Assembly: GCA_965204745.1 (NCBI GenBank)
Contig: OZ242010.1
Location: 5,280,001 to 5,344,000, forward strand
DNA length: 64,000 bases
Direction: 5' to 3'
Source: Candidatus Latescibacterota bacterium
GTDB lineage: Bacteria; Latescibacterota; UBA2968
Below, one piece after another: positions 52,286 through 57,343 of this stretch. Within the stretch, counting starts at the first letter, position 1. The number at the start of each line of letters is the position of its first letter. The notes beneath the pieces were generated by a model, which was given only the letters and a program-made list of their open reading frames with translations, did not search any database and was not told where the DNA came from. Made by a program: the position numbers and the translations under genes.

Positions 52286-52564
52286 ATGAACTGGACCGTC
52301 ACAATAGGTACGAGGGCACAAAAACAAATCAGGCGTTTACCCGAACAGATCAAAAAGAATCTTGTTGCTCTGATCAGAGAGATTGAAGTGGCAGGTCCAG
52401 TTCGTGGGAACTGGCCTAATTATAGCTCTCTCGGAAGAAATCGGCACCATTGTCACATCAAAAAAGGAAGACCGACTTACGTCTCTGTTTGGGAAGTAAA
52501 GGACAAAAACATCAAACTGGTAGAGGTGACTTATGCAGGTACCCATGAAAAAGCACCGTACTGA
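52286..52564 (+). CDS. RelE/ParE-superfamily toxin (HigB-like arrangement)
   Basis: 92 aa basic. W.V...A.KQ...LP, GP.RGNWPNYS.L, HHCHIKKG.PTYV, YAGTHEKAPY. Overlaps the downstream HTH gene. Confidence 0.78.
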   Translation: MNWTVTIGTRAQKQIRRLPEQIKKNLVALIREIEVAGPVRGNWPNYSSLGRNRHHCHIKKGRPTYVSVWEVKDKNIKLVEVTYAGTHEKAPY

Positions 52565-52889
52565 AGCAGACACCATTGAACTGCGCTTTCTCGGTCCGCA
52601 AGAAAAACGCAAGCAAGCCATTCGCGTACTCGATTCCATGGGCTTTGTGGATATATCCGATTCAGTTCCCTGGCAGGCGTGTTTTTCGTATGCTGACGAA
52701 CAGTTGCCCAGCATTTCTCTGGCGGGAGCAAGGGAAAAGGAAGGGTTGACACAACGAGAACTGTCTCGGTTGACGGGCATTCCGCAACGACGTATTTCAG
52801 AAATGGAAAATGGCAAACGGCCCATTCAAAAAGAAACAGCGAAAAAACTGGGGAAAACACTCAACATCAGCTATAAAGTCTTTCTGTGA
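52533..52889 (+). CDS. XRE-family HTH antitoxin (HigA-like)
   Basis: AREKEGLTQRELSRLTGIPQRRISEMENGKRPI...AKKL. Confidence 0.85.
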   Translation: MQVPMKKHRTEADTIELRFLGPQEKRKQAIRVLDSMGFVDISDSVPWQACFSYADEQLPSISLAGAREKEGLTQRELSRLTGIPQRRISEMENGKRPIQKETAKKLGKTLNISYKVFL

Positions 52890-53862: not shown

Positions 53863-53899
53863 TTGAGCAGAACATAGAACCTCGTGCTTTGATGCGTTT

Positions 53900-54054: not shown

Positions 54055-55854
54055 ATGAGCGAAGCCAAAGATGGCCGTTCTGGCCTTGTTTTTCCGCTAC
54101 GCGATTCTTCTTCCGAAGAAATTTTCCTCATTGTGCAGTGCCTTCAGGACGCTGGTTTTTCCCGCCATGACCGAGCATGGCTGGTGCGCGTTTTTGAACG
54201 CCCAGATTGTTTTGGCGATCCCAACGGGGACGCTGTGTTGAAAGAGGCGTTTGCGGCTTCTTTTGAGCATGTTCTGCCCGGCGTCGTGGAAGAATTGGGC
54301 GAACCGGAGCAAACCGAGGAAGACAGGCAGAACCGCTTGGCACTTCTGTTCGGGTTCCTGCTTGGCTTTGGGCCGATCTACAGCGAGGTGGTTCTACCCG
54401 ATGACAGGCTCGGAAAATCGGGCGACGCTTGGCATGTTCCCGCGTGGGTTGGCGCGTTCCAAAAGCACGCGAGGTTTTGTGCGAAAAGTCTGGGTTGGCA
54501 AAAACTCAATGCGTTGCGGGACGCGGGTGTTTTTCGATTCTTTGACCTGATTCCATTTCTCTTTCCCAAAGGCGTGCCATTGGCCCAGGTCGTGGAGTTG
54601 GGCTTGTTAAATCCGATTCTGCGACGCGGATGGTCGAGCGATGATTTTCGGGATCCCAGAGAACTCGAGTTTTGGTTGATCTGGCGATTTCGCACGGATG
54701 CCGAATGCCGCGACATGATTGACCTGCACACGTTATTGCGAGCGTTTTCAGAGTTTCCCGATGGCGTTTTGGGCGATAAAATACTCGGGCTGTTGAACGC
54801 CATCGAATACGCTATGAACCTGGGATCGGCATTGGGCGATAAACGCCTGAATGCGTTGGGCGACGGATGGCGGGTTGTTGCACGGGAGTTGACGCCGTTT
54901 TGGGAACTGTTGAATGGGAAATCGCCAGAGTCGCAGCCGCAACCCTCATCCCTGCTCAAAGCATGGTGGCGGTTGGCTGTGGCGATTCACTACAAAAGTA
55001 TGGGTGGGTTGGAATCCGATCTCGCCGATGAACTCAGGAACCAGCTCGTCGAAAGTGCCGCACGGCACATTGGGATTTTGCGAAAGATAGTGCGAGAAAC
55101 GCCTGAAAATTTTGCAGGTAGGGATTCGACGGGAATGCCCGTTTCCGATTTTTACGACAAGGCGTTTGAAGTGCTGTGCATTTTTGCACCCCCGTGGAAA
55201 TGTCTGAAGTCCTTATTGCTGGCTTTTTCCGAGATGACCGTGCCGGCCATTGCATCTGATCTGCGGCCATGGGCAGAAGCGAACAGAGAAGCCCCGCCGC
55301 ATCCGCATCATCACATCCCGCTGTGGATCGGCATCGCCATGTATCCGCAGAATCTTCGGAATGAATTGAAGCGAGACCCGCACTTGCGGCGGTTGCGCGA
55401 GGAGTTCGCCAAATTTTGCCTCGACCGGCTCAAAACAAAAAAAATTGACACCGAGGCGAAAACCGAGGTGTCTGATTACGCAGATGAAGAATTTGTCGAA
55501 CCGCGTCGCCCGTGGCGACGGTGCTATGTGCAAGCCGTAACCGCATTGCGCGTCAATCCCGGCGGCCGGGCGCACAGAACCCTGTTCTGGCTTTCTAGGA
55601 ATGATCCGGATAAAACGGTCCGAGAATTTGCAAAACGAGCGCACGGACAAATTCGGCATCTCAACCGCAACAAATCGAATTTAGATCGCGGTGCATCACC
55701 CCGCCGCCCCCTATTTGAAGCCTTTTGGTGGCTTCGCCAAGCGCATCTGTTGACGCTCGACAAACCGATTGATGAGGCGGGCGCGCTGCGAACGCGCAGA
55801 ACGGAGTTGCACCGCACCCGCGAGAAAGCTGATCGCCTCAATTGGGAAGCATAG
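54055..55854 (+). CDS. Hypothetical protein, 599 aa, Trp/Leu/Arg-rich, probably alpha-helical
   Basis: Long ORF, SD aaggag before ATG 54055. No family recognised; C-terminal DPDKTVREFAK looks HEAT-like. Confidence 0.8.
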   Translation: MSEAKDGRSGLVFPLRDSSSEEIFLIVQCLQDAGFSRHDRAWLVRVFERPDCFGDPNGDAVLKEAFAASFEHVLPGVVEELGEPEQTEEDRQNRLALLFGFLLGFGPIYSEVVLPDDRLGKSGDAWHVPAWVGAFQKHARFCAKSLGWQKLNALRDAGVFRFFDLIPFLFPKGVPLAQVVELGLLNPILRRGWSSDDFRDPRELEFWLIWRFRTDAECRDMIDLHTLLRAFSEFPDGVLGDKILGLLNAIEYAMNLGSALGDKRLNALGDGWRVVARELTPFWELLNGKSPESQPQPSSLLKAWWRLAVAIHYKSMGGLESDLADELRNQLVESAARHIGILRKIVRETPENFAGRDSTGMPVSDFYDKAFEVLCIFAPPWKCLKSLLLAFSEMTVPAIASDLRPWAEANREAPPHPHHHIPLWIGIAMYPQNLRNELKRDPHLRRLREEFAKFCLDRLKTKKIDTEAKTEVSDYADEEFVEPRRPWRRCYVQAVTALRVNPGGRAHRTLFWLSRNDPDKTVREFAKRAHGQIRHLNRNKSNLDRGASPRRPLFEAFWWLRQAHLLTLDKPIDEAGALRTRRTELHRTREKADRLNWEA

Positions 55855-55902
55855 TGTCCCCCTGCGGCGATAGATACCAACGAGAAAGGAGGTGATGAGA
55901 AT

Positions 55903-56067
55903 ATGGCGAAAATCAGTGGCAATCGCTCGGGCGGTACCCGCAGTGGCGGTAAAGGTGGTCGGCAAAGCGGCGGTCAAAGCAAAAGCCGTGGAAGTGGCGG
56001 CTGGCCGAGCAAGACCGGCAACCGCTCCGGCACTGGCCGAACCAATGCCCCGCCGAAAAGCAAATGA
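55903..56067 (+). CDS. Small Gly/Ser/Lys/Arg-rich peptide, 54 aa (absent from the ORF track)
   Basis: Perfect SD AAGGAGGTGA at 55886-55895. MAKISGNRSGGTRSGGKGGRQSGGQSKSRGSGGWPSKTGNRSGTGRTNAPPKSK*. Confidence 0.72.
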   Translation: MAKISGNRSGGTRSGGKGGRQSGGQSKSRGSGGWPSKTGNRSGTGRTNAPPKSK

Positions 56068-56200
56068 ACTGATCGGAAGGTGCTGATAACGCCAGTTCAT
56101 TCACGCGATCAACACCTTCCGCCAACAACTGGTGCGTCCGCACTTCGTGGCTCAATAGCCACCCGTTTGATCTCTTCGAGATCGTGCTATGGCGCATCCT
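56063..56200 (+). ncRNA. Candidate structured RNA (pseudoknot or switch, plus multibranch domain) upstream of viperin
   Basis: 56063-56071 pairs with 56093-56101 (9 bp); 56074-56087 pairs with 56108-56121 (13/14). Hairpins at 56147-56162 and 56169-56183 are enclosed by 56131-56143/56184-56198. Confidence 0.4.
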
Positions 56201-56243
56201 TTCAAGACAATTTTTGAATCGCCTTGTCAAAGGAGAAAGGATC

Positions 56244-57143
56244 ATGAAAATGACCATCAATTCCCCCGATCTGTCGCAGAAAATTCCATCGGTCAACTAC
56301 CATCTCTGGGAGCCGTGCAACATGCGTTGCAAGTTCTGTTTTGCCACATTTCAAGATGTCAAGCGAGACATGGAACTGCCCAAAGGTCACTTGCCGGAGA
56401 ATGAGTGTCTCTCGGTCGTGGATCGACTTGCCGAAGCCGGTTTTGAAAAGATCAATTTTGCCGGCGGAGAACCCACGCTTTGCCCTTGGTTGCCAAACTT
56501 GATCAAGCGGGCAAAGAACCATGAGATGGTCACCTCCATCGTTACAAATGGATCGAGAATCACCGATCCATGGCTGGACGGGCTGAACGGAAGTTTGGAC
56601 TGGATCGCGTTGAGCATTGATACCGTTGATCCGGAAAAACTGAAACGCTCGGGTCGCGCACTTGGTGGTGGAAAGAAACCCATGACCGAGGAAGAATATC
56701 TGGGCATCATCCGCACCGTAAAGCGACGAGGGGTTCGGCTGAAAATCAACACGGTCATCACTTCTGAAACGTGGCAAGAGGATTTTACCGACTTCATCAG
56801 ATCGGCCAAACCGGAGCGATGGAAGTTGCTCCAAGCCCTCCGCGTCGAGGGGCAAAATGACGCGCATATCGCCGATTTCGAGATCGCGCCAGAGCAATTC
56901 GAGGCGTACGTCCAACGCAATCGCATCGTCGAAAATGACGGTATTATCGTCGTGCCAGAGAGCAATGAAATGATGACGGAAAGTTATGTCATGATCGACC
57001 CAGCGGGCCGCTTTTTTGATAACGCACAAGGTGCCCATACTTATAGCCGCCCTATTTTGGAGGTTGGCATTGAAGATGCTTTGCAGGATGTATCGGTTGA
57101 CCGTGAACGTTTTCTCAAAAGAGGAGGGCAGTATGAGTGGTGA
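56244..57143 (+). CDS. Prokaryotic viperin (RSAD2-like antiviral radical SAM enzyme), 299 aa
   Basis: SVNYHLWEPCNMRCKFCF, KINFAGGEP, SIVTNGS, KINTVI, RWK.LQ.L...GQN, M..SYVMIDPAGRF, C-terminal F.KRGG.Y.W. Confidence 0.93.
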   Translation: MKMTINSPDLSQKIPSVNYHLWEPCNMRCKFCFATFQDVKRDMELPKGHLPENECLSVVDRLAEAGFEKINFAGGEPTLCPWLPNLIKRAKNHEMVTSIVTNGSRITDPWLDGLNGSLDWIALSIDTVDPEKLKRSGRALGGGKKPMTEEEYLGIIRTVKRRGVRLKINTVITSETWQEDFTDFIRSAKPERWKLLQALRVEGQNDAHIADFEIAPEQFEAYVQRNRIVENDGIIVVPESNEMMTESYVMIDPAGRFFDNAQGAHTYSRPILEVGIEDALQDVSVDRERFLKRGGQYEW

Positions 57144-57343
57144 TACACTCCCGCGCTGAAGCGAAGCGGGGTGAGGCCGTTAGAAATGAGGAGCGAAACC
57201 TCGCTGAGAAAGTTGCCCGACGCGAGGCAGTGCTTCAGGCGTACCGGATGTTTGACCCGATTGAGATCGATACCAGTCACCTCGATCCCGATGCCGTACT
57301 CGTAGCGGTGCTCGAGGTTCTGCACAAATCCGTATTGTGTTAA
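57137..57343 (+). pseudogene. C-terminal fragment of a nucleoside monophosphate kinase (CMPK2/thymidylate kinase-like), no P-loop
   Basis: RG....EE..L......R..V..AY.....IEIDTS.....V...VL..L resembles the recalled lid and C-terminal part of CMPK2-type kinases. Overlaps the viperin stop. Confidence 0.55.

Follow-up and report, generated by a model that had tools for sequence, protein, structure and literature searches.

This locus raises the question of whether a 54-codon open reading frame (ORF), lying between an orphan gene and a viperin gene, encodes a functional peptide and what that peptide could do. The window in which it was analysed is a 64,000-nucleotide stretch of DNA from a Candidatus Latescibacterota bacterium (contig OZ242010.1, positions 5,280,001 to 5,344,000 of the forward strand). 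The ORF occupies 55903–56067 of the plus strand, from an ATG at 55903 to a TGA ending at 56067, and its product, here termed the type A micropeptide, consists of a variable Gly/Ser/basic N-half, a conserved core and a short basic tail. The initial annotation had described a Gly-rich basic peptide of 54 residues, which the composition confirms (15 Gly, 10 Ser and 12 Lys/Arg, with no Asp/Glu). It had also claimed the strongest Shine-Dalgarno (SD) sequence in the window, and the sequence AAGGAGGTGA at 55886–55895 of the plus strand indeed ranks first of 3871 ATG/GTG/TTG starts, with an anti-SD duplex energy of -19.0 vs -15.7 for the runner-up; it is kept in relatives and is also found before an unrelated peptide, type B, described below. 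The core spans Trp34 to Pro51 (56002–56055, plus strand) with the consensus WPS(T/K)TGNPSGGGRxNxP, as defined by a codon table, alignment A1 and a cluster profile. The genome holds a single type A copy, and all four ORF differences listed in a strain comparison are synonymous third positions. The term "unannotated", also applied earlier, holds for names only, because gene callers had predicted the ORF (P0001); the window peptide has no match in Pfam, NCBIfam, PADLOC or PHROGs, three tandem type A homologues match no curated-family profile, and a search of the type A profile against 177,635 PDB sequences, ribosomal proteins included, gave nothing at E ≤ 10. In the Protein Atlas, P0131 falls only into "hypothetical protein" clusters, under 0.9. 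A sigma-70 promoter or terminator was rejected as an explanation of the locus, with both signals at shuffle level.

A degenerate pattern of the core was found in at least 120 stretches of GTDB, compared with ∼0.08 expected by chance in 596 Gb of sequence with uniform base composition, and a chance ORF is thereby rejected. The 124 matches listed are 124 distinct DNA words that translate into only 17 peptide words. As nine residues are set by the pattern itself, selection was judged on its free positions. Two of these are open to Ser, Thr, Cys, Trp or Arg and are occupied by Ser in 123/124 and 124/124 of the listed matches, encoded by TCN as well as AGY codons, and outside the pattern an Asn is kept in 121 and a Pro in 90 of 123 listed matches. 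A DNA- or RNA-level element was rejected as the reason for the conservation, since synonymous sites vary freely. The core is thus under purifying selection at the protein level, and the ORF is a real gene. The motif GNRSG occurs twice, at residues 6–10 and 39–43, as had been noted, but the second copy is a local variant of a position held by Pro in 110 of the 124 listed matches, and the repeat was rejected as a functional feature. A profile search recovered 461 clusters (50% identity, E ≤ 0.001), and homologues with a conserved frame were found, which supports the initial view of a conserved, disordered, basic mini-protein belonging to a widespread uncharacterised family.

By record title, bacterial type A sequences come from Pseudomonadota, Bacteroidota, Myxococcota, Chloroflexota, Planctomycetota, Treponema and Helicobacter, with one archaeal record titled Nitrosopumilus and two homologues from MMETSP transcripts. 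The distribution is patchy, with type A present in 10/61 close genomes and 9/400 Bacteroidota. The best 150 representatives include 82 short proteins; the motif is C-terminal in 52, N-terminal in 12 and internal in three, and it is repeated in 16. The peptide has 25–55 residues, the shortest N-half is four residues long, and 71 of the 82 short forms are net basic. In the fusions an acidic run separates the motif from the folded domain (29/36 C-terminal and 7/9 N-terminal cases). One carrier family is predicted to consist of two small α/β domains in tandem with the motif unstructured, the core having a pLDDT of ∼50 in the fusion model, which predicts disorder. The closest fold to the carrier domain is BolA, at a TM of 0.75 over the target; BON, NFU and NusA-KH are further matches, and because the fold resembles BON and NFU too, the carrier is at most a candidate RNA binder. 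In an Acinetobacter locus (L038), the gene for a stand-alone peptide precedes a tandem pair of genes of ∼147 codons, both with the motif at the end. In two Bacteroidales loci (L020 and L032) type A lies between groES and groEL, and in Porphyromonas gingivalis records (P0151 and P0303) it is in frame with GroES.

Type A was also found in 20 viral loci, in four of which it is located between the gene for a single-stranded DNA-binding protein (SSB) and a UvsX-like recombinase gene. A relaxed pattern gave 11 loci on viral contigs, mostly contigs already found, and tblastn searches of GenBank phages and PLSDB plasmids, weakened by the low-complexity filter, returned nothing significant. In six of 27 long homologues, ubiquitin ending in LRLRGG directly precedes the whole peptide, and the same direct junction is found on viral contigs L136 and L137. 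Contig L131 shares their downstream layout and carries the neighbours Pox_A22, DUF5759 and DUF5767, and the three contigs are therefore assigned to the giant-virus type. Ubiquitin extensions are known to be processed and released, in the layout seen for ubiquitin-eL40 and ubiquitin-eS31, and by this known processing type A would be freed as a separate product. Several eukaryotic forms have N termini that resemble organelle presequences, as judged by eye. Taken together, these arrangements reveal a portable module that occurs alone, in repeats, as a terminal tag and as a ubiquitin extension.

In the window, the peptide gene is part of a local module with the order Up gene, peptide, structured RNA and variable effector, the effector here being a viperin. 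Up is an orphan gene of 599 codons (54055–55854, plus strand) with an ATG start, in a frame open from a TTG at 53899. Its product is predicted to be an all-helical α-solenoid (model pLDDT 84.6) with weak fold matches of the ARM/karyopherin type, all short of E ≤ 0.001; searches of Pfam, PADLOC, NCBIfam and PHROGs gave no match and revealed no toxin domain. Up has 427 homologues. An uncultured Latescibacteria record (L057) encodes an Up protein 83% identical and a viperin 88% identical to those of the window. Upstream of the locus, at 52286–52889, a small RelE-looking gene with no profile match is paired with an HTH antitoxin-like gene.

Of 61 close genomes, the same 11 contain both Up and the downstream RNA. 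Each of them has a peptide gene behind Up, which is of type A in nine (the copy in G017 carries an internal stop) and of type B in two (G011 and G014). Type B is preceded by the same SD sequence and is unrelated to type A, with a core of N[HR]ANQLN[PE]NND (the NHANQLNPNN type) and no Pfam match. It occupies the slot after Up in L156 and L159, precedes type A in G049, is fused to it in G034, and also lies 70–2300 nt from it in 7/80 GTDB loci (L015, L036, L044, L046, L048, L073 and L078). Like type A, it has tails that are basic or acidic and forms fusions through acidic linkers, and it is found in 35 viral loci (L268–L302), none of which carries type A. A second, unrelated micropeptide can therefore occupy the type A slot. 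The gene after the RNA varies as well, being a prokaryotic viperin (pVip), a β-CASP nuclease or a B12 radical SAM enzyme (PDC-M51A). The Up family is near type A in 3/80 GTDB loci, all from the clade of the window, and distant Up homologues lie directly upstream of pVip in L214, L220 and L228 with neither type A nor type B, making the Up family a candidate viperin sensor or partner that is absent from PADLOC.

The RNA consists of stem 1 (56074–56121, plus strand; inverted repeat I1), which has a conserved eight-pair core and a variable loop, and a conserved three-way junction just before the effector gene (56131–56198, plus strand). Two-sided changes occur at six of the eight consensus pairs of stem 1 across 12 copies, and 95.9% of cells are paired across 14 copies of the three-way junction, compared with 31–47% when the structure is slid; the fold z score for 56040–56250 is -3.2. 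A known Rfam RNA was rejected, with no match at the gathering level and a best E value of 0.47, and the element at 56074–56198 is a candidate new cis-regulatory RNA. Two of the effector types behind it are radical SAM/kinase units. No peptide locus outside the window's clade was found to have the motif, and in L004 and L031 it precedes viperin with no peptide before it.

Contrary to an earlier claim, the stop codon does not lie inside stem 1. The TGA (56065–56067) is unpaired in the minimum free energy and centroid folds of the window and is found 6 nt before the stem formed by 56074–56087 and 56108–56121, the conserved eight-pair core of which starts ∼12 nt after the TGA. It is paired only in a competing 9-bp helix (56063–56071/56093–56101) in the window folds, although among nine folded copies with an intact stop, the window included, five place the stop in a basal extension. 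Consequently, with the stop directly before the conserved stem, a terminating ribosome could touch the stem base. Local coupling of peptide translation to the RNA is thus possible in this clade, and to that extent the earlier suggestion that translation refolds the RNA may stand, but it does not extend to the family, as the RNA was found in no locus outside the clade and occurs without the peptide in L004 and L031.

The gene adjoining the RNA (56244–57143, plus strand, 299 codons) scores 308.9 bits against NF038283, above the curated cut-off of 180, and matches the PADLOC pVip-kinase model with an E value of 4.7e-114. It is followed at 57137–57343 (plus strand) by a remnant of a viperin-associated nucleotide kinase that retains only the C-terminal part; residues 139–193 of the kinase of L031, which itself matches Thymidylate_kin and PADLOC PDC-M51B/VakA, align with 57164–57328 at 64% identity (E = 1e-16). 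The locus thus shares with known pVip systems (NF038283 with associated nucleotide kinases) a bona fide pVip and a kinase remnant, and type A shows enrichment next to pVips, but it is not a PADLOC component and mostly occurs without pVip.

Peptide-locus neighbours were counted in 80 GTDB loci, leaving out L081–L120 with their short flanks. Viperin is the most recurrent neighbour, found in seven of the 80, four of them outside the clade of the window. In 116 peptide-bearing genomes outside the clade (excluding L004, L031 and L057 of that clade and L113, from the same genome as L112), pVip was present in 12, compared with a one-phylum background of 1/400 Bacteroidota. In five of these 12 a peptide copy lies within ∼2 kb of pVip, where ∼0.02 would be expected by position alone. 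Conversely, among metagenome viperin loci (the best 80 of 470, a sample skewed toward relatives of the window enzyme, with many short contigs), type A was found at ≥28 bits in nine, eight of them within 1.5 kb, with two further weak matches and ∼70/80 pVip loci without type A. The peptide here is mostly just downstream of pVip on the same strand and often closes the series, behind pVip and a small gene without annotation. In control loci around SMODS, OLD-TOPRIM and ThsB (228 kb, in windows centred on short domain matches), type A was found in 0/71 cases, giving a Fisher p of 0.007 for 8/80 vs 0/71, in which related loci are not independent; the eight close pairs fall into ∼3 lineages. Duplicate loci of the same place had been removed before clustering and tree building, and a quick tree of 99 pVips requires 14 changes of the peptide label, at least eight of them forced by well-supported branches, which fits repeated gain or loss of the peptide. 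Type A is therefore selectively enriched beside viperin, beyond generic clustering in defence islands.

The association is not obligate in either direction. No pVip was detected in 104 of the 116 peptide genomes, indicating that the peptide does not require viperin, and none was found in the viral contigs. In L178, L188, L206 and L213 a LytS-type His_kinase and/or LytTR gene precedes pVip, which suggests regulated viperin expression. A third micropeptide, type C, follows pVip in L220 (3736–3933) and L208 (6855–6992). The L220 copy matches the LEA-type Pfam family SMP at 23.9 bits, above the cut-off of 22, and type C reaches 25.9 bits against the interferon-induced IFI6/IFI27 family, below the cut-off of 29.1; on these profile scores it is possibly a bacterial relative of an interferon-stimulated gene, located beside viperin.

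Other neighbours of type A were scanned by Pfam (291 of 476 ORFs) and PADLOC (273 of 476) and revealed no fixed partner gene. Defence and mobile genes are common, and housekeeping or stress genes, including GroES/GroEL, Hsp20 (L007), LepA and GidA, are also frequent. The radical SAM neighbours are viperins, and an RNA-related context is provided by β-CASP nuclease, NYN domain and tandem BolA/KH-II/BON-like carrier domains. No peptide-modifying enzyme, peptidase or exporter recurs among the neighbours scanned (291 of 476 ORFs by Pfam).

A constant motif without a constant partner, present both free and as a ubiquitin extension, points to a linear motif that would act in trans on a target common to all hosts, and RNA or the ribosome is suggested as that target by the basic flanks, the acidic linkers of the fusions and the neighbours acting on RNA. 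Binding to nucleic acid or the ribosome is accordingly a best guess by analogy. The reading we tentatively prefer, as a good possibility and not yet a probable one, is that type A is a disordered basic micropeptide acting as a trans-acting short linear motif on a universal RNA machine, for instance the ribosome, as an accessory of viperin/RNase antiviral operons. Under such a scheme the peptide would be produced in large amounts while the operon is on, its Gly/Lys/Arg flank docking on RNA and its Trp-Pro core supplying specificity, and it may throttle or shield the host RNA machinery during the action of the chain-terminating nucleotides of viperin and of neighbouring RNases; viruses with the peptide would turn the same activity to their own use. 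The ubiquitin-extension ribosomal proteins eL40/eS31 and small basic ribosome-binding proteins offer a parallel in the small basic product directly after LRLRGG and in an extended motif rich in Gly, Pro, Asn and Arg. However, type A has no PDB chain match and no zinc finger, and its distribution is patchy and accessory, unlike eL40 and eS31. Against the preferred reading stand the lack of a ribosomal-protein match in the PDB, a ribosome-type target proposed by analogy, and the commonness of housekeeping neighbours. A wider version, which we regard as possible though doubtful, is a pan-domain antiviral layer in which at least three interchangeable micropeptide types (WPSTTGNPSGGGR, NHANQLNPNN and SMP/IFI6-27-like) would accompany viperin in hosts ranging from bacteria to algae and work on one universal target, for instance the ribosome; phages and giant viruses would have acquired them, giant viruses in the form of ubiquitin extensions.

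Alternatively, type A could be a general stress protectant of the hydrophilin/LEA kind that is induced together with defence and chaperone genes and lacks a single target, a view that we consider rather unlikely. Like the hydrophilins (KGG proteins such as YciG/GsiB, LEA, and SMP PF04927), it is small, Gly-rich, hydrophilic, disordered (core pLDDT of ∼50 in the fusion model) and sometimes repeated; it is flanked by groES and groEL in L020 and L032 and adjoins Hsp20 in L007, unrelated peptides use one slot, and the third peptide after pVip in L220 and L208 matches the LEA-type family SMP. Bulk protectants, however, mostly conserve composition, and residues that are near-invariant across domains, here in the Trp/Pro core, would be unusual for them; type A was also absent from all 71 other defence loci and has no LEA, KGG or SMP match, or indeed any Pfam match. 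A role in directly regulating viperin or a neighbouring toxin (as an inhibitor, antitoxin or product sink), with the peptide labile so that infection frees the effector and with viruses using it as counter-defence, would fit the close linkage to pVip seen repeatedly in separate lineages, the frequent last position behind pVip and a small unannotated gene, and the presence in phages and giant-virus-type contigs. With ∼90% of peptide genomes lacking pVip, and a slot that precedes three unrelated effectors (pVip, β-CASP nuclease and the PDC-M51A B12 radical SAM enzyme), such a role is unlikely.

Leader or arrest peptides of the TnaC, SecM and ApdA type combine a short ORF, a strong SD, structured RNA and a regulated gene, all present in this clade, where a covarying stem starts 6–12 nt after the stop and every one of the 11 Up-bearing genomes has a peptide before the RNA (type A in nine, type B in two); a cis-acting, ribosome-stalling leader, the translation of which would refold the downstream RNA and gate the effector gene, is nevertheless improbable. 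Of 71 GTDB loci with a stand-alone peptide, 33 are followed by a gene on the opposite strand and only 24 have a same-strand gene within 300 nt, so that most of the family has no downstream gene to regulate; a leader arrangement was found only in the window's clade, to which the RNA is limited and where it also occurs without a preceding peptide. Elsewhere beside pVip the peptide is usually downstream, and the ubiquitin and presequence fusions suggest a released product. A cis-leader function may persist as a secondary, local role. The earlier suggestion that the peptide is a dedicated ligand or antitoxin for the upstream protein has weakened, and we judge it very improbable. A peptide follows Up in 11/11 Up-bearing genomes (of 61), and the weak fold matches of Up are peptide-binding ARM/karyopherin proteins, in keeping with the common binding of basic peptides by α-solenoids, but two unrelated motifs fill the slot (type B in G011 and G014), nearly all peptide loci lack Up (near 3/80 in GTDB), Up homologues precede pVip in L214, L220 and L228 without either peptide, and Up has no toxin domain. 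The fixed pairing with one toxin family that characterises type II antitoxins is not seen. Comparably improbable is a role as a RiPP precursor or as a released signal, sensed for example by the LytS/LytTR pairs before some viperins. The variable, leader-like N-half, the constant core, the repeats in 16 of the best 150 representatives and the His_kinase and LytTR genes before pVip in L178, L188, L206 and L213 speak for it, as does the likeness to microcin B17-like and radical-SAM-modified precursors in the Gly/Ser-rich region, constant core and adjacent radical SAM gene. That gene is, however, a viperin, acting on nucleotides; no recurring maturase, protease, exporter or modifying enzyme was found in the neighbours scanned (291 of 476 ORFs); and the N-half can shrink to four residues and the motif be internal or N-terminal, all of which lessens the appeal of the modified-peptide precursor proposed initially. 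A specific Up antitoxin, a RiPP precursor and a general cis leader are thus each unlikely.

Of the hallmarks of known systems, type A displays only a hydrophilin-like composition and a non-obligate linkage to pVip. In the passages covered, a viperin preprint (bioRxiv 10.1101/2023.09.13.557418) describes kinases and fused domains as viperin partners and names no peptide of this kind. No paper on the type A or type B motif was found in a search covering mainly open-access literature. Within that literature, type A is an undescribed peptide family with an undescribed viperin association, and its mechanism is a proposal. The link to viperin, the interchangeable second peptide and the eukaryotic and viral forms all go beyond the initial annotation. 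An 18-residue motif that is near-unchanged in bacteria, an archaeon, microbial eukaryotes and viruses implies a universal, so far unnamed, binding target. Viperin is an immune gene common to bacteria and humans, and the selective link to it gives a direct test, pVip having a standard E. coli/T7 assay. If the peptide modulates viperin defence or translation, it would represent a new class of immune accessory, possibly also one of viral counter-defence; small unnamed genes do sit within known defence operons.

Large ankyrin-repeat and small WG-repeat genes also recur beside type A, in L008, L021, L035, L044, L061, L069 and L072, and in L164. Two of these loci, L035 and L072, both from genomes without pVip, match the PADLOC "Ankyrin" entry PDLC02908.
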